A stretch of 64,000 nucleotides of DNA from Verrucomicrobiaceae bacterium (lineage in GTDB: Bacteria > Verrucomicrobiota > Verrucomicrobiia > Verrucomicrobiales > Verrucomicrobiaceae). Position numbers and translations under genes: made by a program. Every line of letters begins with the position of its first letter. Positions within the stretch are counted from its first letter, which is position 1. The DNA lies in contig JAEUHM010000030.1 in assembly GCA_016795485.1 (NCBI GenBank), forward strand, positions 60,369-124,368, read 5' to 3'. Of the stretch, positions 26,608 through 43,785 are shown piece after piece. The notes beneath the pieces are model-generated. The model was not told where the DNA came from. It did not search any database and saw nothing but the letters and a program-made list of their open reading frames with translations.

Positions 26608-28725
26608 TTAGTGGGTGGACGATGTCGTGAGTTTTGAGAGCTCCTCGGTGGTCAGAGCTCGCGGAAAGATGGCCACTTCGTCAAGTCTGCCTTCCCAATT
26701 GGCGGAGTTATCCGATCGACCGCCAATGAACAATGGGACGGAGTTGTTGCGAGACAAAGTGAGGGTTGAAGCGATCTCAAGCTTTCCGTTGAGATAGACT
26801 TTGATGCTGTTCTTCATGCGGACAAGGGCCACGTGCTGCCATTGCCAACGTGGAATCTCAGTTTCGCCAGCAACGACTTTGGTTTTGTCATTGCCTTGAA
26901 GGAAAATGAGTCTCCCGGTATTGCCGCTTTTGCCTCCGATGCCGAGATGTTCCCCTACTTTACTCAAGCCATGCCCATGATCGGCTGAAACGAACCAGCC
27001 AGCTACATCTCGACCCTCGTTAGGCATTCCGTTCCAGATCCAGGCGGATACCGTGTAGTCCCCGGAGGTCAACTCGCTCACCAAGCGACCTCCCACAAAA
27101 TGAGCCGCGCGATTTTTCTCTGAGGCCTGACAGAAATCAGCGGACTTTGGCCCCTCAAGATAGAATGTGATTCCTGGTTCATAGCTCGCGTGACGTTCGT
27201 TATCTGAAGAGTCAGTGGCCGTTGGACCGTTGAACTCATTTAGCCTCCAATAGGCAGCCGGTTTCAACTGCTTGATGACTGCTGCTGCCTTCCCTTCAGA
27301 CAGAAGCCACGGTTTACGCTCCTTTCCGCTCACTTTCTCCAGGAGCGAAATGGCCGCCTGGGCAATGCGGGGTTCTGCACTAACTTCCAACCCTGCCGAG
27401 CGTGCGGGCCAAGTATTGTAGCCGCCAAACGGGTGTTGTTCCGGCGGTGGAATGTAACCATCTCCTCCGTTTGCCAACTCGATCACGATGTTGTGCTTTA
27501 ATGGGCTTGCCGCTTTGACTTTGAGGCCCGTGACGGCGTAAGTTTCACAGGGAGTGGTGGCAATGCCAATATCTCCCAGGCGGAGAGCCTGAACGACGAC
27601 ATCGGTCTCCTGGAGCTCGTGAAGGAGGATTTGCTCCTTTGCGTAGACTTCGGTTGGCGTCCTCTGTGGGCGATCTCCAGCTTCGGCCATTACTCTCTGA
27701 GCCCACTCAAGGGTCTGTTTGTTGGGCGTGCGGTATTTCATGTGAAGGCGTTGCTCTGCCATCACGACCGGCACGTCCGTTTCGTAGTGGACATCAGAGA
27801 TGGATTTCACAGCTAAATCCGCGAGTGCGTCTGCATACTGTTGAATCGTTAAACCGCCGGTCCCCGCTTTCCACTGCTCTTCGGTGATGGTGTAGTCGCG
27901 GCGATAAATGTCGCCACTACATCCGTGGGACATCAGTGCGACAAAGTTGGCGTCTTTAGCTAGGCGCTGCTTAACACCCTCACAAAACAACCCAAAATAG
28001 TCAGCGCTGATGTCTTTGTCGCCAAAGTAGTGCATTGAGAAGTTACCCAAGGCAGCGAGGGGCTTGCCGTCCACTGTTTGGATGGAGATCATTGCCAAAT
28101 CTGGATCTTCGGGACCTGCTTCGCCTGTGACATCATCCCAGACACGCCCTGCATGCATATTGGCTCTCACGCTAAGGTTTCCAAATGGGTCCTCGGCAAG
28201 TCTGTCTGGGCGTCTGATCCACTGTCGAAGTGCCGTGTATTCTGCCGCGTCGATTTTACCAAAGCCAATCCGCGCGGGTTTGAGCGCTGCCTTGGCCTCT
28301 GAGATGGCTTCCACCAATTTAGCTTTGAGAAATGGAACATAGGTGGGGTCAGCGTCTGTTCCGAGGCAACCCATGGATGATGGGGCAGAGTGGGCGTGAG
28401 TAGCCGAGATTAACATTTTGTCCGCAGGAATGCCGGTTTTTGATGCTGCTTCGGCCTTTGCTTCATCCAGCAATGCTCTTCCCATCATGCAACTGTCGAC
28501 CACTACAATCACCGCTGTCTCTTTATCGTCGGAAAGAGCGAGAGCCCTTGCGTTGACACGAGTGTTGATCTTCTCGACGTAACGACTGAGCATTCCGCCA
28601 TTCACTAGCACTGGCAACTTAGGAGGTGTGACATCTACGACGACTGCCCCGGCTTTGAACTCTGCTTTGGAGAAGCTGGCAATGAGAAAACTGGCGATCA
28701 GAAGGGCTGGGATACGTGTGATCAT
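26608..28725 (-). CDS. Secreted neutral/alkaline ceramidase-family protein with a C-terminal LamG / concanavalin-like domain.
   Basis: Signal peptide from the Met at 28725. ATHAHSAP and SHGCSGD motifs resemble the neutral ceramidase Zn site. C-terminal ~200 aa has a LamG-like pattern. Confidence 0.6.
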   Translation of the reverse strand: MITRIPALLIASFLIASFSKAEFKAGAVVVDVTPPKLPVLVNGGMLSRYVEKINTRVNARALALSDDKETAVIVVVDSCMMGRALLDEAKAEAASKTGIPADKMLISATHAHSAPSSMGCLGTDADPTYVPFLKAKLVEAISEAKAALKPARIGFGKIDAAEYTALRQWIRRPDRLAEDPFGNLSVRANMHAGRVWDDVTGEAGPEDPDLAMISIQTVDGKPLAALGNFSMHYFGDKDISADYFGLFCEGVKQRLAKDANFVALMSHGCSGDIYRRDYTITEEQWKAGTGGLTIQQYADALADLAVKSISDVHYETDVPVVMAEQRLHMKYRTPNKQTLEWAQRVMAEAGDRPQRTPTEVYAKEQILLHELQETDVVVQALRLGDIGIATTPCETYAVTGLKVKAASPLKHNIVIELANGGDGYIPPPEQHPFGGYNTWPARSAGLEVSAEPRIAQAAISLLEKVSGKERKPWLLSEGKAAAVIKQLKPAAYWRLNEFNGPTATDSSDNERHASYEPGITFYLEGPKSADFCQASEKNRAAHFVGGRLVSELTSGDYTVSAWIWNGMPNEGRDVAGWFVSADHGHGLSKVGEHLGIGGKSGNTGRLIFLQGNDKTKVVAGETEIPRWQWQHVALVRMKNSIKVYLNGKLEIASTLTLSRNNSVPLFIGGRSDNSANWEGRLDEVAIFPRALTTEELSKLTTSSTH

Positions 28726-28760
28726 GGCTGTCGGTCTTACGCTCGCCGAAGGCTCATCTT

Positions 28761-29087
28761 TTAGTGGATCGTTTCGTCGTGTACCCATTGTGCATAAGGC
28801 AGAGAGACCTCCGAGGGCGCAAATGCGACAATCTCTGGCACTTCGTACGGGTGCAGTTTCTTCATGTGGTCTTCGAACGCTGGCATCAGTTCCCTTGATG
28901 TTTTGAAGATCCCCAGGACCTCTTGGGTACGCTCAACGGCTCCCTTCCAGCGATAGATCGACTCAATGCTGGGTATGAGATTCACGCAGGCAGCGAGTTG
29001 CGACTCCACCATCTGCGTGCCAATCTCCCGTGCGATGGCGGCATCAGGAAAGGTGACCCATACGATTCGAATATCCATGTCCGGCAT
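28761..29087 (-). CDS. cutA: Divalent-cation tolerance protein CutA.
   Basis: IVWVTFPD...LAACVN...YRWKG...YEVPEI motifs. The ~108-aa length from the internal Met fits CutA1. Confidence 0.75.
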   Translation of the reverse strand: MPDMDIRIVWVTFPDAAIAREIGTQMVESQLAACVNLIPSIESIYRWKGAVERTQEVLGIFKTSRELMPAFEDHMKKLHPYEVPEIVAFAPSEVSLPYAQWVHDETIH

Positions 29088-29090
29088 TCT

Positions 29091-30233
29091 ATGAAGTCTG
29101 GTTTCTTCGACAAGCTTCTCAAGCGGGTAGACCGCCTTGAGCCGGGCGAGATTCAGCATTTTCTAGCGGAACTCCTCCACGAGAAGGGATTGCTTGAGAA
29201 GGTGTTTCAGGCACTCCAGGAAGGCGTTATCCTTTTGGACAATGAGGGAAAGGTAACCTACGTCAATCGTGCAGCCTGCGGGCTATTTGGCTTCGATCTG
29301 GATGCGGTTTTGGGTAAGTCATTGGGAGAAGGGATGCGAGGCATTGACTGGAAAGAGTTACGCAAGCCCGGCACGGTCATTAGTCGCGACCTTGAGATCA
29401 CTTATCCGGAGAATCGCTACCTTAACTTCTACATCACATCCATTGATGACACGCAGGAGCATGGGTTTGTGATGCTGATTCGGGACGTCACTCAAAGTCG
29501 CAAACTAACGCAGGAGAAGATCGAAAGTGAACGCATCAGTGCCTTTACGTTGTTGGCTGCTGGAGTTGCCCACGAGTTGGGCAATCCGCTGAATGGAATC
29601 ACCATTCACCTCCAACTGATGGAGCGGGCATTGAAGAAGATGGGCAAATCTGCAGAGAAAATGCAGAAGCATCTCGATGTGGCGAATGATGAGATCAGGC
29701 GTCTAGATCTCATTATCTCGCAGTTCTTAGCGGCTATTCGGCCCACTCAGCCGCAGCTACAGCGGGTGGATGTGAACGAGTTAATCTCTGAAAGCGCGCG
29801 GTTTTTGACCCCTGAACTCGAGAAGAATCACGTCAGACTGCGCCTTGAGTTACGCTCTGACACGCCGCACATGAACTTGGATGCCACCCAGATGAAACAG
29901 GCATTCTACAATCTGATACGCAATGCCTGCCAGGCCATGCCGGACGGAGGTGAACTTGTCGTAACAACGGCCCACAATGATTTTGAGGTCATTGTGAGCT
30001 TCCAGGATTCTGGAAAAGGCATCTCACCAGAGAACATGGGCAATCTTTTTCAGCCGTTCTTTAGCACACGCAAAACCGGAACGGGCCTTGGGCTGTTGAT
30101 TGTCAGGCGGATCGTGCGTGAGCACGGTGGTGAGATCAGCATCGGTAGCAGGGAAGGTAAAGGCACGAGTATCAGCATCATTTTGCCGCTAGTGGAGAAA
30201 AGAGTCCGTTTGTTAGGAGCTGGAGAAGTTTAG
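29091..30233 (+). CDS. PAS-domain sensor histidine kinase (orphan, no adjacent response regulator).
   Basis: PAS region, H-box HELGNPLNGI, and N, G1 and G2 boxes (GTGLGLLIVRRIVREHGG). I place the start at the first ATG at 29091 to avoid the cutA coding region on the opposite strand. Confidence 0.75.
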   Translation: MKSGFFDKLLKRVDRLEPGEIQHFLAELLHEKGLLEKVFQALQEGVILLDNEGKVTYVNRAACGLFGFDLDAVLGKSLGEGMRGIDWKELRKPGTVISRDLEITYPENRYLNFYITSIDDTQEHGFVMLIRDVTQSRKLTQEKIESERISAFTLLAAGVAHELGNPLNGITIHLQLMERALKKMGKSAEKMQKHLDVANDEIRRLDLIISQFLAAIRPTQPQLQRVDVNELISESARFLTPELEKNHVRLRLELRSDTPHMNLDATQMKQAFYNLIRNACQAMPDGGELVVTTAHNDFEVIVSFQDSGKGISPENMGNLFQPFFSTRKTGTGLGLLIVRRIVREHGGEISIGSREGKGTSISIILPLVEKRVRLLGAGEV

Positions 30234-30314: not shown

Positions 30315-30977
30315 TTGGGCATTCTTCTCCCGATGCACGAACTCTTCCAGGAAGCCTTCTCCATTCACAACCTGCCTGTGACAGTGTTGTTGGGTTTGGT
30401 TCTTGGCTATTGGCTTTTGGTGGTGATCGGGTTCATTGATGCAGACGACAGCGGCATTGACATCAATGGCGATGGCCATGCGGACTTTGGCGATCATCAT
30501 TCCGCTGAAGGTGGCTTCTGGTTGTCTGCTGGTAAGTTTCTGCATCTTGGTGTAGTTCCATTCATGATCGTCGTCAGCGTGCTGGCGCTGCTGATGTTCC
30601 TCTTCTCCGTCCTGGCCAACTACTACTTCAATGGCCAGCCGGGAGCCCGAAGCGCAACGGTTGCATTGCTTTGGCTCATCCCCAATTTTCTGGTGAGCGT
30701 GATCATCACCCGCATCGTCATCACGCCCGTAAAGAAGCTGTTTGCTTCGTTTCAGGACCGAATCGAAGCGGAAACCAAGGTCATTGGCAAAGAAGGACTA
30801 GTCGCCTCCATGCAAGTCGACCGCACGTACGGCCAGGTTGAAATCACCACTGACGGTGCGCCTCTCCTTCTCAATGCACGTGTTTCGGAAGGCCACGACG
30901 CCATTCCAAAAGGCACAAGTGTCATTGTTTTCGACATCTCAGAAGATCACTCTCACTACCTCATCCGACCCTTATGA
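30315..30977 (+). CDS. NfeD-like / YqiJ-like membrane protein (flotillin partner) with a C-terminal OB-fold.
   Basis: N-terminal TM helices, C-terminal beta-rich domain. ATGA overlap with the flotillin gene, matching the conserved yqiJ-yqiK-type pairing. Confidence 0.6.
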   Translation: MGILLPMHELFQEAFSIHNLPVTVLLGLVLGYWLLVVIGFIDADDSGIDINGDGHADFGDHHSAEGGFWLSAGKFLHLGVVPFMIVVSVLALLMFLFSVLANYYFNGQPGARSATVALLWLIPNFLVSVIITRIVITPVKKLFASFQDRIEAETKVIGKEGLVASMQVDRTYGQVEITTDGAPLLLNARVSEGHDAIPKGTSVIVFDISEDHSHYLIRPL

Positions 30978-33028
30978 TAGACCAAGCACTACTCTTCACC
31001 ATTGGCGCAGGCATTTTTGTCGTTTTCGCCATCTTCATCATGCTCTCTCGGTTTTTCCGCAAGGTGCAGCAAGGCCAAGCGCTGGTGCGCACTGGGATGC
31101 GGGGAGAAGCCGTCACCTTTTCGGGAATGATGGTCTACCCCATCATCGATCAGGCCGAGTTGATGGACATCTCGGTCAAACGTCTTGAGATTGAGCGCAG
31201 TGGCGCAGAAGGCCTCATATGTAAAGACAACATGCGTGCTGACATTAAGGTGGCGTTCTTCGTTCGTGTGAACAAAACACCACAGGATGTGCTGCGAGTG
31301 GCGCAGTCCGTAGGTTGTCAGCGCGCCTCGAATGTAGACGCCATCCGCACTTTGTTTGACGCCAAGTTTTCAGAAGCACTGAAGACAGTGGGCAAGCAGT
31401 TCGACTTCGTGCAGCTCTATGATGAGCGAAATCGTTTCAAAGACGAAATCCTCAAAGTCATAGGCACGGATTTGAATGGATTCATTCTCGACGACTGCGC
31501 CATCGACTTCCTGGAGCAGACTGCCATCGAGCATCTTGATCCAGACAACATTTTGGATGCAGAGGGCATCAAAAAGATCCACGAACTGACGGCAGAGCAG
31601 GCTAAGCTCTCCAATCAGATCCAGCGCGACAAGGAAAAGGTGATGAAGCAGCAGGACGTGGTCGCTCGGGAGGCGGTGCTTGAGCTTGAGCGCCAGCTTG
31701 CCGAAACCGAAGCCAAGCAGAAGCGAGATGTGGAGTCCGTCAAGGCCCGTGAACAGGCAGAAACCATGAAGGTGCAGGAAGAGGAGCGCCTGAAAGCCGA
31801 GAAAGCACGCATTGCCGCTGAAGAGGAGATCAATGTAGCCACTCAGAACAAGGATCGTCAGATTCTCGTCGCTCAGCGTAACAAAGAGCGCACGGATGCT
31901 GTGGAGGTCGAGCGTGTGACACGTGATCGCGACCTGGAGATCATCGAACGCGAGCGTGTGACCACCTTGAAGGCCATCGAGAAAGAGAAGGCTGTCGAAG
32001 TGGAGAAGAAGAACATTCAGGACGTCATCAAAGATCGCGTCATGTTAGAGAAGACGGTTGTCGTTGAGCAGCAGAAGATGAAAGACACCGAGGCGTTTGC
32101 TACCGCCGACCGGGAGAAGCAGGTGGCACTCACCAACGCGGAGAAACTCGCCCAGGAGCAACTCATTCAAAAGATCAAAGAAGCCGAAGCGGCCAAGGAA
32201 GCAGCCAAACTGCTCGCCGAACAAGAAGCGCTGAAGGCGATCAAAGCTGCAGAGGCTGCAAAACAAGCTGCAGAGCTGCATGCTCAGGAGTTGATGACAC
32301 TCGCAGAGGCTCGCCAGGAAGCATCTTCCAAGGACGCAGCTGCGGAGAAAGCCCTTGCGGAAGCGATTGCGGCCAAGTCTGCCGCCGCAGGACTCGGGGA
32401 AGCCCAGGTGCTGCTGGCCAAGGCGGATGCCGCACGCAAGCAAGGCGAGGCCGAAGCCGAAGTCACTCGTTTGAAGCTCGCCGCCGATGCGGAAGGCATC
32501 ACCAAGAAAGCCGAGGCAATGAAGCTTCTGGAAAACGCCGGTCGTGAACATGAGGAGTTCAAGCTCAACCTGGAGAAGCAGAAGGCAGTGGAACTCGCCC
32601 AGATACACATTCAGAAAGACATCGCTGCCGCCCAGGCCGGTGTGCTGGGAGAGGCCATGAAGAGCGCCAAGATCGAGATTGTGGGTGGCGAAAGCCAGTT
32701 CTTCGACAAGATCACCAATGCGATTGGCAATGGTCGCGCCATCGACCGGATGGTGGAAGGCAGCCGCACGCTGACCGACGTGAAGGAGACATTCTTCAAT
32801 GGCGATCCTGAGTATTTCAAAGCTCAGCTGAAGGGCCTTGTGGATCAGTTTGGCCTCACTGCTGAGGACACAAAGAACCTGACGATCAGCGCTCTGCTCA
32901 TCAAGCTACTAGGCCTTAATGCCGACAGCGGTACACAAAGCAAGCTGACTGGAATGCTGGGCGCGATGGCGCGCTTTGGATTGGCCGAAGAAGCTGCAAG
33001 CGCTGTGTTGGGCGGGAAGAGGAAGTGA
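30974..33028 (+). CDS. Flotillin-like SPFH/band-7 protein (YqiK/FloT family) with a long Ala/Glu/Lys-rich coiled-coil tail.
   Basis: N-terminal TM, SPFH domain, extended EA-repeat coiled coil. Confidence 0.8.
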   Translation: MIDQALLFTIGAGIFVVFAIFIMLSRFFRKVQQGQALVRTGMRGEAVTFSGMMVYPIIDQAELMDISVKRLEIERSGAEGLICKDNMRADIKVAFFVRVNKTPQDVLRVAQSVGCQRASNVDAIRTLFDAKFSEALKTVGKQFDFVQLYDERNRFKDEILKVIGTDLNGFILDDCAIDFLEQTAIEHLDPDNILDAEGIKKIHELTAEQAKLSNQIQRDKEKVMKQQDVVAREAVLELERQLAETEAKQKRDVESVKAREQAETMKVQEEERLKAEKARIAAEEEINVATQNKDRQILVAQRNKERTDAVEVERVTRDRDLEIIERERVTTLKAIEKEKAVEVEKKNIQDVIKDRVMLEKTVVVEQQKMKDTEAFATADREKQVALTNAEKLAQEQLIQKIKEAEAAKEAAKLLAEQEALKAIKAAEAAKQAAELHAQELMTLAEARQEASSKDAAAEKALAEAIAAKSAAAGLGEAQVLLAKADAARKQGEAEAEVTRLKLAADAEGITKKAEAMKLLENAGREHEEFKLNLEKQKAVELAQIHIQKDIAAAQAGVLGEAMKSAKIEIVGGESQFFDKITNAIGNGRAIDRMVEGSRTLTDVKETFFNGDPEYFKAQLKGLVDQFGLTAEDTKNLTISALLIKLLGLNADSGTQSKLTGMLGAMARFGLAEEAASAVLGGKRK

Positions 33029-33054
33029 TGTTGAACCGCTAGTGGTTTAAGATC

Positions 33055-36000
33055 ATGTCCCAACCCGACTCCAAGCTCGAAGCTGGTGCCTACGAGGTCA
33101 TCCGGCAGCGTTTGTCGAAACACGCTGCCGAGTTGTCCACGCGATTGGAGCGTCTAAACACCGAACGTAAGGCGATCTTTGGCGGTATTGATCTGGCGCT
33201 GATCTCTACGTCTAGACTGACGACAGAGAACAACTGCGTGCCTCGCGACATGGTCGCGATCGGACCGTCACGTTTCTTGTTTGGCTACAACGTTCATCTT
33301 GGGCTCCGGTCCACGATGCGGATTGAGGATGTGTTCGCTGTGTATGACTATCAGAACAGCGATCACAGCTTCCATCATCACAAAAATGGACTGCTGGATG
33401 ATCCGGCGTTCGCGGAGGACTTTGCTTACATCTACAAGTTCTACAAGAACGCCTCATTCCTGAAGTTCCATCGCTTGGGGCCACACCTTTACATGGTGAT
33501 GCAGGCCGGTCGTGATGTATCCGAGGTGAAGACCTTTAAATGGCTGGTCAACGATGATGCCGGCACGCTGAAGTATCTGGGTAACCGCTTTGATCACGAG
33601 TTCGTCTTTCCGCCGCAGCATGAGCTCGAGTGGAAGCGTGCAAGACGCGAAATGTACCGTGAAGGTGAGCATTCGCATGTTAGCATTGATGATCGTGTCT
33701 TCGTAGAGACCATCGGTGGTGACCTCACGGTCAAAGTGGAAAACAACACAGACAGCGGCAAAGGCATCTACTCTGAGCCAGTGGAAAACAGAGATCAGAC
33801 TCTGGACGATGCCGAGTTTTGGTATGCAATCGCTGGAAGCCTCGTTCTCCTCCGCGTTCTACCTTATCAGGAAAAACAGTATCGCCATTTGCTCTTCAAT
33901 GAGCGCACTCAGGAAGTGCATCGGATTGATTCGCTCGGAGAGGCATGTCTTCTGCTGCCGGATGATCACGGCGTGCTATTCACGGATGGCTACGCTCTGC
34001 AAACTGGTGCCGTGAAGCGCTTGCCTACGGAGCGAAAGGGCATGAAGTTTGAGCGCCGGATTAGCTCGGCGAACGGCGAGGATACGCTGTTTGTCTTCCA
34101 CAATGTTGAGCAGGGCGAGTATCAGTTGCTTCACTACAACTTGATCGCTCAGGACCTTAGCACGCCGATGTTCGCGCATGGCTACAGCCTCTTTGCGAAC
34201 GGCGAGATGCTGCTGGTGAATGGAGATCCTGAACCGCGCAAGCACCACGTGGTGCAGTCATGGCGAACACCCATCGTCACGGAGAGCGTGGCAAATGAGG
34301 CGCACTCGAAGAGCTTCCTGGCTCAGATTGGCAATGCAGACCTCGTTCGCGCCATGGCGGAGTGCCGTGGAGTCCTCACTCTACTGGGCAAGGAGGACAG
34401 TTTCTCCGGCCTTTATGTCGATCTCGCACGGCGCACTACCGACATCGCGGATGCCTACTTCTGGATTGACCGGGAGGAGGCACATCGCATCAAGGAAGTG
34501 CTGCTAGAGATCAAGGGAGCCGCAGAGTCAGCCTTGGCCGAGTTTGAAAAAGTGCGCGCCATGCGCCGATCTGCTGCCGCGCAAACGGAGCAACTGAAAG
34601 CCAAGGTCGATGCGGCGATCAGCATGGCCCGGAGCACTCAGCCAGATGATATTCTAGGCTACGTGAAGCAACTGACGACTCTGAGAGAGTTGCGTGGTCA
34701 GGCGATTGCACTCAAGGACGTGCGCTATGTGGATCTCGATGCCGCAGGTGTCATGGACAAGACACTGTCCGAGACAGCAGACAAGGTCAGCGAGCAATGC
34801 ATCACGTTTCTGCTCAAACCGGAAGCACTTGAGCCTTACAAAGCACAGATTGGTGCGCAAAAGGCAAGGATTGGGTCTATTGGCAAGGTAACGGATGCTG
34901 ACGAACTGGCGTCAGAACTGGACAAGGCTGCGGGAGAGTTGGAGATGCTCACCAGCGTGGTCAGTGGACTGAAGATCAAGGACGCCACAGAGACCACGCG
35001 GATCGTTGAGAGCATCTCGGAGCTGTATGCCCAGCTCAACCAAGTCCGCTCGCTAGTGCGCAACAAACGGAGTGAGCTCGCACGCCAGGAAGGGGCTGCA
35101 GAGTTTCAGGCGCAGATGAGCCTCCTCAGCCAGAGCGTGCTGAACTACCTTGAGGCCTGCACATCACCGGAGAAGTGTGACGAAGCACTCACCCGCGTGA
35201 TGGTTCAGGTGGAAGAAGTAGAGGGCAAGTTCTCTGACTTCGATGAGTTCGTGTCGGAGATCGCCAACAAGCGCGAGGAGATCTATTCTGCTTTCCAAGG
35301 CAAGCGCACCAGCCTTGTGGAGGCACGTAACAAGCGCTGTGCCGCTCTGGGACAGAGCGCCGAGCGCATACTGTCCGGGCTGAGAAACAAAGCGGCTGGA
35401 TTTGCCAAGACCGAAGAGGTGCATGCTTATCTCGCCAGCGATGTCATGGCGGCCAAACTGCGTGATCTCATCGAAGAACTGCGTGGTTTGGGTGATGGCG
35501 TTCGCGCGGATGAACTCACCACTCGTCTCAAGACGTTGCGCGAAGACGCACTGAAGCAGATTCGTGACAAAGCAGAGTTGTTTGCCGATGGCGGTGACCT
35601 CATTCAGTTCGGTCGGCACAAGTTTACCGTCAATCGCCAGCCGCTGGAGCTTACTATGCTACTGCGTGATGGTGCTCTGTGGTTTCATCTGAGCGGGACC
35701 AGATACTTTGAGAAGGTCGAAAGCGCAGAACTGGAGCCGCTCAAGGCAGTGTGGGAGCAGAACGTCATCTCCGAGGATGCGAGCGTCTATCGCGCGGAGT
35801 ATTTGGCGTGGAAGTTTCTTCAAGCACACCCGGATAAACAACAGGTTGCGGTGGAAGAGGTCCGGGCGTTCATGCATGAGCGTTACCACGAGGGATATAC
35901 CAAGGGTGTGCATGATGCCGATGGTGCACTGATCTTAAATGCACTGCTCCCTATGCATCACAGCCTGGGATTGCTGCGGCATTCCTCCATGGCACGGGCT

Positions 36001-37974
36001 GAAGCGCTCGTGTTCTGGAAAGGCTGGGCGGACGGACCTGATAAAGTGGCCTTTGCGGCACGGATGCGGGCACGCGGGAAGATGAAGAGTGCGTTCGGTA
36101 CGGGGGTAGACGGTGTTCTGCCTTCACTTCCGGGAAACATTGCCACTGCGGCTTTGCGCTGTCTGTGTGATGAGTTGATGGCGTCCGCCACACTGCCGCA
36201 CACGCGTTCTGCGGCGGCCGTGGAGCTCGTGAAAGCATTCAAGAAGACGCTGGTCACGAAACGCAGCACTGCTGACTTCAATGAAGTTCTCTCTGCCCTC
36301 GCCGATCAGCCGCAGACCCAGTTTGAGATCGCTTATGAGTGGATCAAGGCCGCTCACCCTGAGGCGGAAGACAGTTTGGCACAAGAAGCCGCCGCTTTGT
36401 TGCTCTACGATGATGCAGGGGCGGGAGTCGCTTCCACATCGAAGACAGAGCTTGCTGGATTGACTGGAAGTCACTCACGAATCACGAACGGCATGTTGCC
36501 GCTCGACTACCACGAGTTCACGGAACGGCTCAGTCGCTATGAGAGCACGACAGCGGCTGCATTTGACCGCTTCAGCGCGTTGAAGCATGAACTCATCACG
36601 AAGAAACGAAACGCGCTTCGGCTTGAGCAGTTCAAGGCCGGAGTTTTGAGTTCATTTGTCCGCAACCGGCTGCTTGATCAAGTCTATCTGCCCATCATCG
36701 GTGCCAACCTGGCTAAGCAAATCGGCGCGGCGGGTGCTGATACGCGGACGGATCGCATGGGCTTGTTGCTGCTCATTTCACCACCCGGCTACGGCAAGAC
36801 CACATTGATGGAGTATGTGGCCAATCGCCTGGGAATCACCATGGTGAAGGTCAACGGACCTGCACTCGGTCATCAAGTGACGTCGTTGGATCCCGCCGAG
36901 GCTCCAAACGCCAGCGCGCGTGAAGAAGTGGAGAAACTGAATCTCGCTTTCGAGATGGGTGACAACGTGATGATCTATCTGGACGACATCCAGCATACCC
37001 ATCCAGAGTTTTTGCAGAAGTTCATCCCGTTGTGCGATGGCACGCGCAAAATTGAAGGCGTGTTCAAAGGACAGGCGCGGACGTATGATTTGCGAGGTCG
37101 AAAAGTTGCTGTGGTGATGGCCGGCAACCCCTACACCGAAATCGGTGGACGTTTCCAGGTGCCGGACATGCTGGCCAACCGCGCGGACACTTACAATCTC
37201 GGCGAGATCCTCGGTGGTCACCAGGAGGCGTTCAAAGACAGCTACATTGAGAACACCATGACCAGCAACCCTGTGCTGGCCCGCATTGCAGCCCGCAGTC
37301 ATGCGGATGCACTCAGTGTGCTGAAGATCGCCCAGACCGGCAGCCGAGAAGGCATTGAATATGAGGGCAACTACAGTGCAGAGGAAATCAACGATGCGGC
37401 GGAAGTCATGAAGCGCCTGCTGCAAGTCAGGGAGACCATTCTGCGAGTGAACGAGGAGTACATTCGCTCAGCGGCCCAAGAGGACGCCTATCGCACAGAA
37501 CCTCCGTTCAAACTGCAAGGCAGCTATCGGAACATGAACAAGATCGCGGAGAAGATTCAGCCGATCATGACCGAGGCTGAGGTGCAGCAACTCATCACCG
37601 ATCACTATCGCAGCGAATCCCAAACGCTTAGCAAGGCCGCTGAGGCCAACTTGCTCAAGTGGCGCGAGATCACAGGCCAACTCGACGAAGCCGGGGATGC
37701 CCGATGGAAGGAGATCCGGCGCACTTTTGGTCGGAACCTGCTTTTGGGTTCATCTGACGATCCGGTTGGCAAGATTAGCGGCCAGCTCAGTGCCCTGGTG
37801 GAAGCCGTGTCTAAGCCCACCCTCAGTGAGCAGACGGTGGAGCATCTGAAAAAGATCATCGAAGGCCTGCGAGCTGTGCCTGTGAACGTGGACATCAACG
37901 TGCTACCCGTAGAGCGAAGGGACGACGATGATGTGCCAGTGAGAACTGACACGACAGTTCGTCAGGATATTTGA
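33055..37974 (+). CDS. Giant (1639 aa) uncharacterised protein with a C-terminal AAA+ ATPase module (RuvB/Lon-like) and a long coiled-coil-rich N-terminal region.
   Basis: Walker A LLLISPPGYGKTTLMEYVANRLGITMVKVNGPAL at about nt 36780. Walker-B-like MIYLDDIQH. Sensor-1-like VAVVMAGNP. No N-terminal P-loop, which argues against SMC/RecN. Starts 27 nt after the flotillin gene. Confidence 0.6.
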   Translation: MSQPDSKLEAGAYEVIRQRLSKHAAELSTRLERLNTERKAIFGGIDLALISTSRLTTENNCVPRDMVAIGPSRFLFGYNVHLGLRSTMRIEDVFAVYDYQNSDHSFHHHKNGLLDDPAFAEDFAYIYKFYKNASFLKFHRLGPHLYMVMQAGRDVSEVKTFKWLVNDDAGTLKYLGNRFDHEFVFPPQHELEWKRARREMYREGEHSHVSIDDRVFVETIGGDLTVKVENNTDSGKGIYSEPVENRDQTLDDAEFWYAIAGSLVLLRVLPYQEKQYRHLLFNERTQEVHRIDSLGEACLLLPDDHGVLFTDGYALQTGAVKRLPTERKGMKFERRISSANGEDTLFVFHNVEQGEYQLLHYNLIAQDLSTPMFAHGYSLFANGEMLLVNGDPEPRKHHVVQSWRTPIVTESVANEAHSKSFLAQIGNADLVRAMAECRGVLTLLGKEDSFSGLYVDLARRTTDIADAYFWIDREEAHRIKEVLLEIKGAAESALAEFEKVRAMRRSAAAQTEQLKAKVDAAISMARSTQPDDILGYVKQLTTLRELRGQAIALKDVRYVDLDAAGVMDKTLSETADKVSEQCITFLLKPEALEPYKAQIGAQKARIGSIGKVTDADELASELDKAAGELEMLTSVVSGLKIKDATETTRIVESISELYAQLNQVRSLVRNKRSELARQEGAAEFQAQMSLLSQSVLNYLEACTSPEKCDEALTRVMVQVEEVEGKFSDFDEFVSEIANKREEIYSAFQGKRTSLVEARNKRCAALGQSAERILSGLRNKAAGFAKTEEVHAYLASDVMAAKLRDLIEELRGLGDGVRADELTTRLKTLREDALKQIRDKAELFADGGDLIQFGRHKFTVNRQPLELTMLLRDGALWFHLSGTRYFEKVESAELEPLKAVWEQNVISEDASVYRAEYLAWKFLQAHPDKQQVAVEEVRAFMHERYHEGYTKGVHDADGALILNALLPMHHSLGLLRHSSMARAEALVFWKGWADGPDKVAFAARMRARGKMKSAFGTGVDGVLPSLPGNIATAALRCLCDELMASATLPHTRSAAAVELVKAFKKTLVTKRSTADFNEVLSALADQPQTQFEIAYEWIKAAHPEAEDSLAQEAAALLLYDDAGAGVASTSKTELAGLTGSHSRITNGMLPLDYHEFTERLSRYESTTAAAFDRFSALKHELITKKRNALRLEQFKAGVLSSFVRNRLLDQVYLPIIGANLAKQIGAAGADTRTDRMGLLLLISPPGYGKTTLMEYVANRLGITMVKVNGPALGHQVTSLDPAEAPNASAREEVEKLNLAFEMGDNVMIYLDDIQHTHPEFLQKFIPLCDGTRKIEGVFKGQARTYDLRGRKVAVVMAGNPYTEIGGRFQVPDMLANRADTYNLGEILGGHQEAFKDSYIENTMTSNPVLARIAARSHADALSVLKIAQTGSREGIEYEGNYSAEEINDAAEVMKRLLQVRETILRVNEEYIRSAAQEDAYRTEPPFKLQGSYRNMNKIAEKIQPIMTEAEVQQLITDHYRSESQTLSKAAEANLLKWREITGQLDEAGDARWKEIRRTFGRNLLLGSSDDPVGKISGQLSALVEAVSKPTLSEQTVEHLKKIIEGLRAVPVNVDINVLPVERRDDDDVPVRTDTTVRQDI

Positions 37975-38037
37975 CATTCCTCAACGAGAAGATAACTCAC
38001 CTTTGCCCATTTCGGAGGTCGAAACCCGGGCGATTGA

Positions 38038-39447
38038 ATGAGTGCGATGTTGATTGTCCTACTCGTGTTGGTGGTTGCCGCCAGCATTGGCCTCGTTGTC
38101 TCTGTGCGACTAAACAAGGTGCGCGGTCGTGACCTGAGAGGACTCCAGGAGGAGCAGGAGGACATCGTTGGCACCGAGCGCCGCATGTTCGGCTATCTGC
38201 ACGACTTGAGCGTTGCCATTGCGGGAGAACAGCGAGAGGCCACTTTGTATCGGCTGATCGTCGAGGGAGCTGTGAAAGTGACCGCCAGTGCTGGCGGTGC
38301 GTTTTATGTGTTTGATGAAGCTGCAAATGCGATGGTTCCCCGTCATGTTTCTTCAGACTGCACACCGCTGATCACACTGCCAGGCTCTGCTTCGACTCAA
38401 CAGCCAGGTGGGCTTTTGAGTCAGTTGAGATTGCAGCGTGTCTCCGCAGATGATTCGATGCTGGGCGATGTGCTTGCGGATCAGACGGCGAGGATGGTAA
38501 AGAATCTGCCTGGGTATTCAGGTCATACCGCATTGGTGGGCCCAGTCACGTCTGGGAAGAAACGGCTGGGCGTGCTCGCAGTGACCCTCCCGCCTGGAGA
38601 GCAGCAATACGACGCCAATGACATGGAAATCTTTAGCGCTCTTGCTGAGCAGAGCGCTTTCGCTCTGGCGAGTGCTGCGGCTCACGTCGAGATGGCGCAG
38701 AAGCGAAAGCTGGAACAGGAGCTCAGCTATGCGAGCGAGGTGCAGCGCGTGCTGCTTCCAGACTCTCAGCCTAAGTTGAATGGCTTCTCGATCTTTGGCA
38801 GAAACCGTGCTGCAAAGATCCTCAGCGGCGACTTCTTTGATTACGTGGTGCCAGACCCTAATCGATTTGGCGTGATCATCGCCGATGTCTCCGGCAAGGG
38901 CTTCCCCGCAGCATTGATCGCGGCGACTTGCCGTAGCTCCGTGCGCGCGCACGCCATTGCCCAATCCTCGCCATCCTCAGTGCTTAGTGCGGTGAATCGG
39001 CAAATCTTCGACGACATCAATGAGGACATGTTCGTGAGCGCGATCTACCTGATTTTGGAGGAGGGTGGCGATATGATCCGACTGGCGAGAGCGGGTCACC
39101 CCAATCCTTTCCTTTGGAGGAAAGCCACTGGGGAGGTGGAAGAAATCACTGCTGGGGGATTGGGGCTCGGGATTGACGAAGGCGAGGTGTTTGATCGTGT
39201 GAGCAAAGATGCCGTGATCCAACTTCAGCCGGGAGACTGCCTTTTGACTTACACGGACGGCGTCACCGAAGCTGAAAACGCGGAGGGTGAGGAGTTTGGA
39301 GAGGACCGGCTCCGGCAGATGTTGGCCAAGCTAGCTGGAGATGGCCCTGCAACTCTGGTGAACGCTATAGTTGCTGCTGTCGACGAGTTCTGCGGCAGGA
39401 TTTCCCCGGCCGATGACATCACGCTGGTAGCTATCCAGCGCCAGTGA
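38038..39447 (+). CDS. Membrane-anchored GAF-domain PP2C/SpoIIE-type serine phosphatase (RsbU-like).
   Basis: N-terminal TM, central GAF-like region, and C-terminal PPM motifs (GDFFDY, IADVSGKG, TDGVTEAEN). Confidence 0.75.
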   Translation: MSAMLIVLLVLVVAASIGLVVSVRLNKVRGRDLRGLQEEQEDIVGTERRMFGYLHDLSVAIAGEQREATLYRLIVEGAVKVTASAGGAFYVFDEAANAMVPRHVSSDCTPLITLPGSASTQQPGGLLSQLRLQRVSADDSMLGDVLADQTARMVKNLPGYSGHTALVGPVTSGKKRLGVLAVTLPPGEQQYDANDMEIFSALAEQSAFALASAAAHVEMAQKRKLEQELSYASEVQRVLLPDSQPKLNGFSIFGRNRAAKILSGDFFDYVVPDPNRFGVIIADVSGKGFPAALIAATCRSSVRAHAIAQSSPSSVLSAVNRQIFDDINEDMFVSAIYLILEEGGDMIRLARAGHPNPFLWRKATGEVEEITAGGLGLGIDEGEVFDRVSKDAVIQLQPGDCLLTYTDGVTEAENAEGEEFGEDRLRQMLAKLAGDGPATLVNAIVAAVDEFCGRISPADDITLVAIQRQ

Positions 39448-39529
39448 GGAAAAATGTGGCGAGACAGCCCTGGAAAAGGCGCTAACATGCCTCAAACCGT
39501 TTCAACCACACGACTCCTCTCCGTCTCCA

Positions 39530-40381
39530 ATGTACGCTCTTCCCTCACCGATGCTCGCGTTCGGTCTGGACTTCGCCCTTAGCCATTCGTCTCCATCCGG
39601 TTGGTTGGTTGGAGGGCTGATCCTGATACTTTCATTGGCGAGTTGGCTGGTTATCTCCCTCAAGCTTCACCTGTTGAATGTATCCCGGACAGCCAACGCG
39701 GACTTTTTGCACGTGTTTAGGCATAGCCATCATCCGCTGTCCATTTTTCAGACCGGGGAGCGATTTGATGAATCACCGCTGTTTCACATCTATCATGCCA
39801 TGGCCCGTGAGTTGGCATACCACCTGGTCGGTGTAGACACTCCGGACAAGACGTTTCAGCAAAGACTTGCGGGTGCTGGCCGCATTACCTCATCGCAATC
39901 GAATGCCATCCGCCGGAGCATGGAGCGGGCGATGAATGAAGCCTGTGCGAAAGTGGAGTCGAGGCTGGGCCTAGTGGCACTGGCAGTTAGTGCTGCTCCG
40001 GTTCTGGGCTTATTTGGCACCATCTGGGGCATCATGGACAGTTTCAGTGAAGTCGCTGGGGCAAAGGGAGCTATCCCGGTTCAGGCGGTCGCACCTGGAG
40101 TGGCTGCAGCGCTACTCACCACCCTGCTGGGCCTGCTCGTTGTCCTACCGAGCTTGGTGGGGTACAACTTTCTGGTCGGTAAAATCCGGGCCATGACCAT
40201 GCGTTTGGAAAACTTCGTTGGAGAGATCGGTACGGTGCTGGACCGTCACTATGTGGACCATCGCGCACCGGCTGACGAGATTCCAAGCCTCGAAGCCTTT
40301 GGTGCTCCTGGCGTGGTTTCGTATCCGTCGGCTACGTCAGCACCATTCCCTCATACTGGAGCAAACCCGATAGACTCCTGA
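39530..40381 (+). CDS. MotA/TolQ/ExbB-family proton channel protein with no adjacent ExbD/TolR/MotB partner.
   Basis: Three TM helices with the GLFGTIWGIM and LLTTLLGLLVVLP signature of the family. The next gene is a small 4-TM protein, not ExbD. Confidence 0.7.
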   Translation: MYALPSPMLAFGLDFALSHSSPSGWLVGGLILILSLASWLVISLKLHLLNVSRTANADFLHVFRHSHHPLSIFQTGERFDESPLFHIYHAMARELAYHLVGVDTPDKTFQQRLAGAGRITSSQSNAIRRSMERAMNEACAKVESRLGLVALAVSAAPVLGLFGTIWGIMDSFSEVAGAKGAIPVQAVAPGVAAALLTTLLGLLVVLPSLVGYNFLVGKIRAMTMRLENFVGEIGTVLDRHYVDHRAPADEIPSLEAFGAPGVVSYPSATSAPFPHTGANPIDS

Positions 40382-40389
40382 GCGTAACT

Positions 40390-40746
40390 GTGGGCATGGC
40401 CCACTATTTACTGAAGCTTTTCATTTCTGCGGGAGTCATCGTTGCCGTCACTGAGCTGGCTAAGCGCAACAATCTCGCTGCCAGCATCATCCACTCCCTG
40501 CCACTCACCTCGTTGCTCGCCTTCATTTGGCTGTACGCAGAGACGGGTGATGCCAAACTCATTGGAAATCATGCGTTCGGCACGGTCTGGTTCGTCTTGC
40601 CGACTCTCCCGATGTTTTTGGTCATGCCGTGGCTCATTCAGAAGGGAATGGGCTTCTGGCCCAGCTTGCTCTCATGCATCGTGGGCACAGTTGGGCTCTA
40701 CTATGTCACGATGAAGCTGCTCGCGGTGGCTGGGGTCAAACTCTGA
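40390..40746 (+). CDS. Small 4-TM membrane protein (DUF3147-like).
   Basis: 118 aa, four predicted TM helices. 9-nt gap after the MotA-like gene. Confidence 0.45.
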   Translation: MGMAHYLLKLFISAGVIVAVTELAKRNNLAASIIHSLPLTSLLAFIWLYAETGDAKLIGNHAFGTVWFVLPTLPMFLVMPWLIQKGMGFWPSLLSCIVGTVGLYYVTMKLLAVAGVKL

Positions 40747-40757
40747 GCCTCAGGCGG

Positions 40758-41768
40758 CTAACACTTGACCACAATCTTTCCGACGTGCTGACCTGACTCG
40801 ATCCTTTTGAAGGCGTCTACGGCCTCTGAGAGGGTAAACGTTGAGTCAATCACTGGGCGCATCTCGTGCGCCGACATGCACTTCAGGAGATCCATAAACA
40901 TCGCCCTGGAGCCTACATAGACCCCATCTAGCCGGATGTTCTTCCGCAAGATCTGCACGGTCTGAATCTCGCCAGACGTACCGGTAAGCACACCGATCAG
41001 CGCTACATGACCGCCAAAGCGGACAGAGCGCAAAGACTTGTTAAGCGTGTCAGGCCCGCCCACTTCGACGACTTTATCCACTCCGACGCCATCCGTTTGG
41101 CTCAGGACCCAATCATCCCAGGCTGGATCTTGGCGATAGTTGTGAACCTGCTCCGCGCCAAGAGCTTTCAATTGAGCCGCCTTCTCCTCACTACTGGTAA
41201 TGGCGAGCACACGCGCACCCGCGATCTTGGCCAACTGAAGCGCGAATACTGAAACGCCACCTGTTCCAAGAAGCAGCAACGTCTCACCGGCCTTGAGTTG
41301 ACCACGCACCATCAGCGCATGCCAAGCGGTGACCGCCGCACAGGGAAGCGTAGAGGCTTCTTCCAGCGTCAGGTAGTCAGGCACATGGACCAAACACGAA
41401 GCTGGCACCACAGCATACTCCCGCATCATGCCATCCACATGCGCGCCCAGTGCCGCTCCTTGGTGAGATGGCAGCATCTCCCCATCTAGCCATTGCGGCA
41501 TGAACGGAACGACGACTCGCTCGCCGATTCGCCAGTTTGCAACACCTTCACCGAGGGCAGCAATCTCGCCCGCACCGTCTGAGCATGGAACACGCGGGAT
41601 CGGCCCCGTGATGCCGCGGATGCCCACCACATTCATGTAGTCGCGAAAGTTCAGACACGTTGCCCTGACGCGAATCAACACCTCGCCATGCCCAGGCTCC
41701 GGCGTGGGAATGTCGTTGAGCTTCAGTGAATCAAAACCGTCTGTCCCGGTGATCTGGATGGCCTTCAT
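40758..41768 (-). CDS. Zinc-type alcohol dehydrogenase / quinone oxidoreductase (MDR superfamily).
   Basis: GxGxxG Rossmann motif (LLLGTGGVSVFALQLAKIAGARV) and an MDR fold pattern. Confidence 0.8.
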   Translation of the reverse strand: MKAIQITGTDGFDSLKLNDIPTPEPGHGEVLIRVRATCLNFRDYMNVVGIRGITGPIPRVPCSDGAGEIAALGEGVANWRIGERVVVPFMPQWLDGEMLPSHQGAALGAHVDGMMREYAVVPASCLVHVPDYLTLEEASTLPCAAVTAWHALMVRGQLKAGETLLLLGTGGVSVFALQLAKIAGARVLAITSSEEKAAQLKALGAEQVHNYRQDPAWDDWVLSQTDGVGVDKVVEVGGPDTLNKSLRSVRFGGHVALIGVLTGTSGEIQTVQILRKNIRLDGVYVGSRAMFMDLLKCMSAHEMRPVIDSTFTLSEAVDAFKRIESGQHVGKIVVKC

Positions 41769-42201: not shown

Positions 42202-43785
42202 GGTAGGGCGCTTGGTCCCCCAAGCGCCGCGCGAGAGGAACGCGAAAGTCCAGCCAATGACCCGTGCATTGCACCTCCCATTGGCTATCCCCGCCCCACG
42301 CCTTCACCGGCTCACTGAGGACAGTTCGCCCTACCTCCGCCCAGGAAGAGCCGCACGCCGGTAGGGCGCTTGGTCCCCCAAGCGCCGCGCGAGAGGAACG
42401 CGAAAGCCCAGCCAATGACCCGCGCATTGCACGTCCCATTGGCTATCCCCGCCCCACGCCATCACCGGCTCACTGAGGACAGTTCGCCCTACCCTCCGCC
42501 CAGGAAGAGCCGCACGCTGGTAGGGCGCTTGGTCCCCCAAGCGCCGCGCGAGAGGAACGCGAAAGCCCAGCCAATGAACCGCGCATTGCACCATCCATTG
42601 GCTATCCCCGCCCCACGCCATCACCGGCTCACTGAGGACAGTTCATCCTACCTCCGCCCATGCAATGCCACCGACTGGCCTCTTCATCTCACCCGCAACC
42701 CATCTTCCACCCATCCACGGTCGCTTGAAGCTTGAATGGCCACTCTTCGGCGGTCTGGCAAAGGCCCTTTACCACTGGATTGTTCACCACGTATCTCAAC
42801 TTTGCCGTGACTTCGTCATCAGACCTTAGGCGATGATCAAAGAAGCCCTCCTGCCATTGGATGCCCAGAAAGCGGGCGGTGTACCTCTTCCAATCACGGA
42901 CCACCGCTGGCATTGGCGAGCTAGTCCGAGGAAAAGCGAACACCCCATGCAAGTGATCTGGCATTAACAGGGCAAGAAGCACGTGCCACTTGCCCTGCTC
43001 CGAATACTTTCGCAAAGAACCTAACAGGCCATCGGCAACGGCTGGACTGGTGAGTTGATCCACCCCACGGTGAGCACAATTGATCGTGACAAAGAACCAC
43101 GCCCCATCATCTACCCAATGGGGCGTATCGTGTCTGAGACGAGTTCGTTGAGGAAGTGCATCCGATGATTCATTCATCGCAGATTAGGTCACCGCATCGT
43201 GATCAAAAAGTGAAGAACGAATGATGAAGTGTGTGAAGAAATTTCCTTTCGCCCAGGAAGAGCCGTACGCTGGTAGGGCGCTTGGTCCCCCAAGCGCCGC
43301 GCGAGAGGAACGCGAATGCCCGGCCAATGACCCGCGCATTGCACCTCCCATTGGCTATCCCCGCCCCACGCCATCACCGGCTCACTGAGGACAGTTCACC
43401 CTACCTCCGCCCAGGAAGAGCCGCACGCTGGTAGGGCGCTTGGTCCCCCAAGCGCCGCGCGAGAGGAACGCGAATGCCCAGCCAATGACCCGTGCATTGC
43501 ACCACCCATTGGCCATCCCCGCCCCACGCCTTCACCGGCTCACTGAGGACAGTTCACCCTACCTCCGCCCATGCAAAGTCGCGTGAGAGGAACGCGAAAG
43601 CCCAGCCAATGACCCGTGCATTGCACCATCCATTGGCTATTCCCGCCCCACGCCTTCACCGGCTCACTGAGGACAGTTCGCCCTACCTCCGCCCATGCAA
43701 AGCCGCGCGAGAGGAACGCGAATGCCTGGCCAATGAACCACGCCATCACCGGCTCACTGGGGACAGTTCGCCTTACCTTCCGCCT
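42202..43785. mobile_element. REPtron-like locus: a RAYT (IS200-like Y1 transposase) gene flanked by arrays of a ~158-bp REP unit with two internal hairpins.
   Basis: Three REP copies upstream (42202-42670) and about four downstream (43251-43785) of the RAYT CDS. The units carry stems gggcgcttgg/ccaagcgccc and agccaatg/cattggct. Confidence 0.8.
42689..43177 (-). CDS. REP-associated tyrosine transposase (RAYT; IS200/IS605-like Y1 transposase).
   Basis: HxH motif (DHLHGVF) and a C-terminal catalytic-Tyr region (RYVVNNPV) in a ~160-aa protein flanked by REP arrays. Confidence 0.8.
   Translation of the reverse strand: MNESSDALPQRTRLRHDTPHWVDDGAWFFVTINCAHRGVDQLTSPAVADGLLGSLRKYSEQGKWHVLLALLMPDHLHGVFAFPRTSSPMPAVVRDWKRYTARFLGIQWQEGFFDHRLRSDDEVTAKLRYVVNNPVVKGLCQTAEEWPFKLQATVDGWKMGCG

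Follow-up and report, generated by a model that had tools for sequence, protein, structure and literature searches.

A three-gene unit, encoding a YqiJ-like membrane protein, a YqiK-type flotillin and a giant AAA+ ATPase of 1,639 amino acids (aa), lies in a 64,000-nucleotide (nt) stretch of a Verrucomicrobiaceae genome (the window, meaning the whole stretch that we analysed). An original prediction made from these letters had joined the three genes to a downstream phosphatase, a MotA/ExbB-like channel and a small four-transmembrane (4-TM) protein as one six-gene signalling or defence cluster. Comparison with related loci near-certainly parses the locus as three unrelated units placed side by side: the triad (30315-37974), a GAF-PP2C phosphatase gene (38038-39447) and a tolQ + 4-TM pair (39530-40746). 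The biochemical role of the triad is speculative, and we infer, at slightly better than even, that the giant is an ATP-driven remodeller acting at a flotillin scaffold in membrane stress or maintenance. The original prediction had not recognised the system, but the triad is already described by Ravi et al. (2024, mSystems; PMC11237479); it is known from comparative genomics and is not a discovery of this window.

The triad genes are as follows.

30315..30977, + strand: gene 1, a YqiJ/DUF1449-like inner-membrane protein with three transmembrane (TM) helices and a C-terminal β-rich (NfeD-type) domain; probable start ATG 30333 (214 aa)
30974..33028, + strand: gene 2, a YqiK-type flotillin of 684 aa, assigned by profile comparison with E. 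coli YqiK
33055..37974, + strand: gene 3, the giant, a soluble DUF3686/DUF7902/AAA+ protein of 1,639 aa (Pfam)

Checking the open reading frames (ORFs) placed all six genes, and a histidine kinase gene upstream of them, on the + strand exactly where the original prediction had put them. Its gap values of -4, 27, 64, 83 and 9, with 82 to the kinase, proved to be start-minus-end differences: the 4-nt overlap was right and the other lengths were not. The actual spacing from gene 1 to the 4-TM gene is a 4-nt overlap followed by 26, 63, 82 and 8 nt, with 81 nt to the kinase. The triad genes are thus tightly packed, genes 1 and 2 overlapping by 4 nt and gene 2 lying 26 nt from the giant. Gene 1 probably starts at ATG 30333 and not at TTG 30315, because all homologues begin 'M-ELxxEA'.

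Conservation of the three-gene unit

The triad is near-certainly an evolutionarily stable unit across many phyla. Scanning one genome per species over 185,579 species, we detected the giant in no fewer than 594 species, which belong to roughly ten phyla. We fetched 80 loci (24 Verrucomicrobiota, 33 Bacteroidota, 11 Planctomycetota, 5 Clostridia, 4 Desulfobacterota, 1 Omnitrophota, 1 Kiritimatiellota and 1 unassigned) and searched all ORFs of 88 related loci with the window proteins (E<1e-5, within ±10 kb for the PP2C, MotA and 4-TM proteins). A flotillin gene lies directly upstream of the giant on the same strand in 67 of the 70 loci with at least 3.2 kb of upstream sequence, and a YqiJ-like gene is present as well in 63 of them. 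The predicted linkage of the AAA+ protein to an NfeD-like/flotillin pair is therefore sound.

Order and strand are kept in Verrucomicrobiota, Planctomycetota, Bacteroidota, Desulfobacterota and Clostridia, and also in annotated plasmid-collection records of Actinomycetota (Streptomyces) and Pseudomonadota. A plasmid of Hymenobacter sp. DG25B encodes a DUF1449 protein, a hypothetical protein that aligns as a flotillin orthologue, and a 'DNA repair ATPase'. P. fluorescens pQBR103 has a hypothetical protein, an SPFH protein and a 'DNA repair ATPase'; a Streptomyces plasmid has a hypothetical protein, a flotillin and again a 'DNA repair ATPase'. None of these three records carries a phosphatase or MotA-type gene after the triad.

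The flanks of the triad are fluid. Five Verrucomicrobial relatives, with giants 53-80% identical, all retain the string of a ~220-aa protein, a ~690-aa protein and the giant; its upstream flank holds uvrB, an M64 peptidase gene or gcvP, and its downstream flank holds corA or convergent genes. The next gene downstream of the giant is on the opposite strand in 44 of 76 loci, and all-against-all clustering of neighbours found no conserved gene family on that side. Usually the unit ends with the giant.

Upstream, the triad recurrently meets membrane-stress genes. PspA is present in 18 of the 68 loci with at least 6 kb of upstream sequence and CesT in 16 of 68 (the same loci; Pfam check). In Bacteroidota and on Pseudomonas pQBR103, a CesT/Tir(YjfI)-PspA/IM30 pair precedes the triad in one gene string.

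Three further observations came from these loci. In Bacteroidota, a divergent HTH_3 + Peptidase_S24 regulator of LexA/phage-repressor-like type lies upstream of the CesT-PspA-YqiJ-flotillin-giant string (L001, 2583-3368, - strand, and 15 other loci), which suggests that an autocleaving repressor may control the triad there. In about a third of related loci (L015, L018, L032, L045, L076 and about 20 others), the interval between flotillin and giant holds small, heterogeneous genes on the same strand, encoding a PDDEXK_3 protein, an IS200 transposase, DMP19, an AbiEii toxin or an esterase. The interval looks like an insertion hotspot; we considered whether the inserted genes are conserved accessory components and, given their heterogeneity, rejected the idea. 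Finally, a Proteus mirabilis record (L093, NZ_OL790812.1, 4.09 Mb), filed as 'plasmid' and evidently a chromosome, contains an abbreviated triad of 209, 731 and 1,644 aa that is unannotated there and was found by ORF search. A tractable model organism therefore has the system.

Architecture of the giant AAA+ protein

The giant lies outside any well-characterised family unrelated to flotillin and belongs to the uncharacterised DUF3686 family. Pfam matches DUF3686 (PF12458) at residues 26-469 (E 4e-174, 579.6 bits), DUF7902 (PF25472) at residues 590-674 (92.6 bits) and one C-terminal AAA module at residues 1238-1358 (33.9 bits; RuvB_N and AAA_5 also match). The two N-terminal regions are thus already modelled in Pfam as DUFs, and the single C-terminal AAA+ module of the original prediction is upheld by Pfam and by the structural model. 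The protein has no TM segment. It is 100% identical to protein P0001 of a Verrucomicrobiaceae metagenome-assembled genome, which NCBI names 'DNA repair ATPase'. Homologues number 5,364, with 415 clusters at 50% identity and E<=1e-30. Among 120 homologues listed, AAA and DUF7902 occur in all 120 and DUF3686 in all except one truncated entry.

Two AlphaFold models built from a 44-sequence alignment cover the giant, with a mean predicted local distance difference test (pLDDT) score of 84 for residues 1-1200 and 85 for residues 1150-1639. Together with invariant alignment columns and Foldseek searches, they give the following map.

Residues 12-42, + strand: long N-terminal helix (AlphaFold model)
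Residues 48-404, nt 33196..34266, + strand: β-propeller of ~28 strands, consistent with seven blades (model, Foldseek)
Residues 420-837, nt 34312..35565, + strand: stacked long-helix bundles resembling spectrin repeats, with DUF7902 inside (590-674)
Residues 845-1151, nt 35587..36507, + strand: small β unit and helical domain with no family match (model, column conservation)
Residues ~1200-1430, nt 36652..37344, + strand: AAA+ module (invariant columns, model, Foldseek, Pfam)
Residues 1242-1249, nt 36778-36801, + strand: Walker A, SPPGYGKT (invariant columns)
Residues 1308-1314, nt 36976-36996, + strand: Walker B, YLDDIQH (invariant columns)
Residues 1442-1605, nt 37378..37869, + strand: conserved C-terminal helical extension with the motif RTEPPFKLQGSYRNMN, then a disordered tail (model, invariant columns)

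The N-terminal half pairs a propeller with a long helical arm. Foldseek matched the propeller to Sec12, the DCAF1 WD40 domain, the clathrin terminal domain and IFT-A propellers (E 8e-6 to 1e-3). In the model, the helices that follow are 40-58 residues long and pack as spectrin-like bundles. We rejected a protocoatomer-like membrane coat, which combines a β-propeller with an α-solenoid: the propeller is present, but the helices form long bundles and not short hairpins, and the family is not specific to the Planctomycetes-Verrucomicrobia-Chlamydiae (PVC) group. The clathrin and IFT-A matches are driven by the propeller and have very low TM-scores. A repair ATPase of the SMC/SbcC/RecN type was also rejected, given that the ATPase of the giant is a single C-terminal AAA+ module with no split ABC head and that its neighbours are membrane proteins.

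The middle domain holds a conserved polar cluster. A profile of this domain (A7, residues 845-1151) matched nothing among PDB sequences or in Pfam. In an alignment of 44 sequences that reaches down to 25% identity, the only invariant polar residues of the giant outside the ATPase are E907, H953, D954, D956, R981, E1111 and H1140, and the motif EGYxKGVHDxDA contains H953, D954 and D956. The cluster may form a second active site, or else an interface that is fixed.

In the model, the AAA+ module belongs by its hairpin and by its best fold matches to the pre-sensor-1 β-hairpin superclade (RuvB/HCLR/MoxR/MCM). The hairpin spans residues 1332-1345 (strands 1332-1337 and 1340-1345), before β4 and the sensor-1 residue N1358; lid helices follow. 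Foldseek matched the module to RuvB, MoxR (CbbQ/NorQ, TM-score by target 0.5-0.62), ClpA/B D2 and MCM at E ~1e-7, and none of its matches is a close solved structural relative. By sequence, the giant matches PDB entries via the P-loop alone. Across the whole family, Walker B reads Asp-Asp instead of Asp-Glu.

The YqiJ-like protein and the flotillin

The gene 1 product is a divergent member of the YqiJ/DUF1449 family, with three TM helices and a C-terminal β-rich domain. Comparison by hhalign of its profile (A2, built from neighbour-locus orthologues) with E. coli YqiJ (DUF1449) gave a probability of 94.9% and E 4.8e-8 over 177 columns. The protein has three hydrophobic segments (residues 23-41, 83-101 and 118-136), and its gene lies directly upstream of the flotillin gene; position and TM helices are both those of a YqiJ partner. 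Pfam, with the YqiJ_N, DUF1449 and NfeD models included, gave no match at E<=0.01, and the sole Pfam signal is one to YqiJ_N (E 0.028) in one of eight gene 1 homologues. The earlier label 'NfeD-like' is broadly right, and YqiJ/DUF1449-like is more exact.

Gene 2 had been called a flotillin, and profile comparison with E. coli YqiK supports the call (hhalign with profile A1, probability 99.95%, E 3.7e-38, ~400 columns). The product has one N-terminal TM helix (residues 6-24), an SPFH domain, an E/K/A-rich coiled-coil region and a conserved C-terminal region specific to its family; E, K, R, Q and A make up 62% of residues 200-560. It has no Pfam match at E<=0.01, Band_7 included. Its pQBR103 orthologue, 40% identical, does match Band_7 (E 9e-11, 42.5 bits vs a cut-off of 23.6), and a flotillin fragment from a close relative (L007) matches it weakly. 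Against PDB sequences, the protein alone or as a profile found only a marginal coiled-coil match to QmcA (8z5g).

The C-terminal region sets the triad flotillins apart. The last 185 residues (500-684) have no similarity to YqiK, and positions 461-620 average 57-60% identity to the window protein across 65 triad flotillins. That these flotillins have their own conserved C-terminal region is an observation added by the present analysis. The region is a candidate docking site for the giant.

A proposed role at a flotillin scaffold

We propose that the giant works on a scaffold made by its neighbours. The flotillin and the YqiJ-like protein are membrane-anchored and the giant is soluble, and its Walker A, Walker B and sensor-1 motifs are intact. 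The flotillin, aided by its YqiJ-like partner, would form an oligomeric ring or cage attached to the cytoplasmic side of the membrane, like the SPFH complexes whose structures are solved. On this assembly the giant would dock, most likely through a contact of its β-propeller or helical arm with the family-specific C-terminal region of the flotillin. Its AAA+ modules would oligomerise and use ATP to drive assembly, disassembly or reshaping of the scaffold or of proteins held in it. The outcome would be a role in a membrane-stress or maintenance response, in co-operation with PspA where PspA is encoded alongside. The membrane-stress reading of Ravi et al. (2024) is the same as ours, from independent data.

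Several points weigh against this proposal. Three of the 70 loci (L039, L064 and L072) have a giant and no flotillin homologue within 10 kb. PspA and CesT are absent from the 64-kb window by tblastn. The Asp-Asp of Walker B is shared by the whole family, and ATP turnover may therefore be slow or regulatory. A pure remodelling model does not account for the conserved E907/H953/D954/D956/R981/E1111/H1140 cluster. A promoter and terminator scan of 28.5-41.5 kb gave counts no higher than in shuffled sequence and is uninformative on transcription units. We found no experimental study of any triad member in the literature.

A more specific version of the remodelling proposal is tentative and, in our judgement, rather doubtful. 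In it, the giant would be a dedicated assembly or 'uncoating' factor for flotillin cages: the propeller or the spectrin-like arm would bind the C-terminal region of the flotillin, the AAA+ ring would open, close or recycle the cage, and a further step, enzymatic in nature, might be contributed by the invariant His/Asp/Glu site of the middle domain. If true, this would give membrane microdomains or membrane repair an energy-controlled cycle with a logic like that of Vps4 with ESCRT-III or of clathrin uncoating, and would provide the first defined biochemical partner for bacterial flotillins.

The triad could instead be a conflict system, acting against phages or by abortive infection, in which the flotillin/YqiJ pair senses the membrane perturbation of an invader and the giant executes or licenses the response. 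Its patchy distribution over many phyla (at least 594 of 185,579 species) fits horizontal transfer, and it is found on plasmids. Mobile or defence-type small genes (AbiEii, DMP19, PDDEXK_3, IS200) sit between flotillin and giant in about a third of related loci, Bacteroidota versions carry the divergent HTH + S24-peptidase regulator, and the middle domain with its invariant H/D/D/E residues could be an effector. Searches aimed at defence and phage proteins nevertheless returned little. In PADLOC-DB 2.0 the best match of the giant was IetA at E 0.002 over 29 P-loop residues, and the other five proteins of the proposed cluster had no match. Pfam recognised no nuclease, protease, NADase or pore domain that could serve as an effector, a tblastn search of 50,697 phage records yielded no relative, and a PHROGs search gave generic P-loop or clamp-loader matches only. 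The recurrent partners of the triad are the membrane-stress proteins PspA and CesT and not defence genes, and its surroundings in the window are housekeeping genes. We consider a conflict role improbable.

Genes flanking the triad

The remaining genes of the original cluster are, by their distribution, bystanders outside the module: the GAF-PP2C phosphatase, the TolQ and 4-TM proteins and the PAS kinase.

28923..30233, + strand: PAS histidine kinase, 436 aa (Pfam)
38038..39447, + strand: membrane-anchored GAF + SpoIIE/PP2C phosphatase, 469 aa, with one TM helix (Pfam)
39530..40381, + strand: TolQ orthologue (MotA/ExbB family), 283 aa (Pfam, NCBIfam)
40390..40746, + strand: 4-TM protein, 118 aa (NCBIfam PRK09272, four hydrophobic segments)
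40758-41768, - strand: convergent Zn-alcohol dehydrogenase gene after the tolQ + 4-TM pair

The domain calls of the original prediction are sound. The 469-aa protein is GAF + SpoIIE/PP2C by Pfam, the 283-aa protein is MotA_ExbB and TolQ-like by Pfam and NCBIfam (TolQ score 122.8, under the cut-off of 221), and the 118-aa protein, in which four segments are hydrophobic, is PRK09272 by NCBIfam. What failed is their connection to the triad. The six genes, with or without the kinase, had been read as one flotillin-associated signalling or defence system in which the PP2C phosphatase and a MotA/ExbB motor work with the AAA+ protein, and the shared strand and short gaps are in keeping with this. So is a metagenomic contig (L094) that keeps the order of the window at 72-80% protein identity (giant 80%, GAF-PP2C 72%, tolQ 80%, then the 4-TM gene). 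Yet homologues of the PP2C, MotA/ExbB and 4-TM proteins occur within 10 kb in none of the 88 related loci, so neither the conserved six-gene order nor the linkage of the AAA+ protein to a phosphatase and an ion-driven-motor-type channel survives. Two close relatives (L004 and L007), whose giants are 78-80% identical, carry unrelated downstream genes, and L094 is the only relative with a GAF-PP2C gene downstream of the giant. The order common to the window and L094 runs on through the alcohol dehydrogenase, FTHFS, Wzy-type ligase and ABC-3 genes; this extension into housekeeping genes points to lineage-level synteny rather than functional linkage. Homologues of the PAS kinase occur in three of the 88 loci, distant and never adjacent, and the upstream genes differ in every close relative. 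The six-gene reading is largely refuted.

The tolQ + 4-TM pair has its own affiliation. In Verrucomicrobia, MotA/ExbB orthologues 49-77% identical to the window protein head operons of the order tolQ, a 116-aa 4-TM gene (PF28289, BV97_02767), tolR (ExbD), tolA, tolB and pal, and the 4-TM protein of the window is 84% identical to one encoded between tolQ and tolR in another locus (L090). The 64-kb window contains no tolR (ExbD), tolA, tolB or pal, and hence no MotB/ExbD/TolR partner for the channel, a further point against the six-gene reading. The pair followed by a convergent alcohol dehydrogenase gene is found in the window and in two independent metagenome contigs (L094 and L095). Because three assemblies have it, the truncated arrangement is real and not a misassembly. 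It may reflect either a tol-pal operon split in this lineage or a partial extra copy. We also rejected a Zorya or MotAB-type motor coupled to effectors: the window has no ExbD/TolR homologue, the MotA gene is absent from the 88 loci, and its orthologues are tolQ.

Two other genes of the window were recorded in passing. At 26608-28788 (- strand), a 726-aa protein combines a weak match to the N-terminal region of neutral/alkaline ceramidase (E 6e-8) with a C-terminal Laminin_G_3/concanavalin-like domain. At 42689-43177 (- strand), just past the break in tol-pal synteny, a 162-aa ORF has a weak match to IS200-type Y1 transposases (E 0.005, under the Pfam cut-off).

The least probable reading, and one that we give very little weight, is that the giant is a DNA repair ATPase and that its adjacency to flotillin is incidental. 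It draws on the NCBI name and on the Pfam description of DUF3686 as 'ATPase involved in DNA repair', on RuvB being among the best sequence and fold matches of the AAA+ module, on weak matches to JetC/MukB-like, LmuB and Ppl proteins, and on uvrB upstream of the triad in one relative; but the name has no apparent experimental basis (we found no paper on the DUF3686/PF12458 family, or on flotillin with a 'DNA repair ATPase'), the RuvB similarity is confined to the generic P-loop region (residues 1202-1299, E ~1e-4) where MoxR and Clp D2 fit equally, the SMC-like matches (JetC, LmuB, Ppl) lie in the helical-bundle region at E 4e-4 to 0.03, Pfam detected no DNA-binding or nuclease domain, and the giant is linked to two membrane proteins in ~95% of loci. 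The name 'DNA repair ATPase' appears to derive from P-loop and coiled-coil resemblance alone.

Significance and relation to known systems

What bacterial flotillins do at the molecular level is still under debate, although they are widely studied. An ATPase of ~1,600 residues that is nearly always encoded beside one subfamily of them, in no fewer than 594 species of many phyla, gives a strong lead to the function of these scaffolds. The present analysis limits the module to three genes instead of six, maps the domains of the giant on models of good confidence and adds an invariant polar site. The feature that had looked most unusual, a connection with a phosphatase and an ion-driven channel, is an accident of gene order. 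The triad is widespread, uncharacterised and worth experiments, and tractable hosts carry it: Proteus mirabilis, P. fluorescens SBW25 (pQBR103) and Streptomyces.

The closest precedent is the triad itself as described in CesT/Tir-PspA-flotillin-AAA+-YqiJ operons (PMC11237479). By comparative genomics, in a single paragraph, Ravi et al. reported it both within PspA-linked operons and in widely distributed 'abbreviated' operons that lack PspA. The triad is common to both forms, and our models confirm the propeller, helical region and AAA+ module. The window holds the abbreviated form, with no PspA or CesT within its 64 kb (tblastn). Their study contains no structure, motif analysis or experiment; the domain models and motifs come from the present work. 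A survey of SPFH proteins in P. aeruginosa does not mention the giant ATPase.

Genes 1 and 2 resemble the NfeD-type + flotillin pairs YqiJ-YqiK of E. coli and YuaF-FloT of B. subtilis in order and families (hhalign against E. coli). The E. coli pair, a DUF1449 protein and a flotillin, is followed by small-RNA and toxin genes and not by an AAA+ gene. The window flotillin exceeds YqiK in length by ~130 residues and is unrelated to it over the last 185 residues. Genes 5 and 6 are a different matter: their orthologues head tol-pal operons, whereas the window has tolQ and the 4-TM gene without tolR, tolA, tolB and pal.

SPFH proteins form membrane-attached rings or cages, with an NfeD partner in QmcA-YbbJ and around the AAA+ protease FtsH in HflK/C. 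Of characterised systems, HflK/C-FtsH comes nearest to such a pairing of SPFH and AAA+ proteins, with an SPFH scaffold and an AAA+ ATPase functionally coupled at the inner membrane. The components differ. FtsH is anchored in the membrane, is a classic-clade AAA protein and has a protease domain, whereas the giant is soluble, nearer to RuvB, MoxR and Clp D2, and has no protease domain; the SPFH partner of FtsH is of HflK/C type, whereas that of the giant is of flotillin type. Vps4, acting with ESCRT-III or PspA-family polymers, shares with the triad the concept of an AAA+ ATPase encoded beside a membrane-remodelling scaffold, and about one locus in four has PspA, a member of the ESCRT-III superfamily, in the gene string of the triad. 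Vps4 itself is small, belongs to the classic AAA clade, carries an MIT domain and has no sequence or architectural relation to the giant; what the two have in common is the concept.

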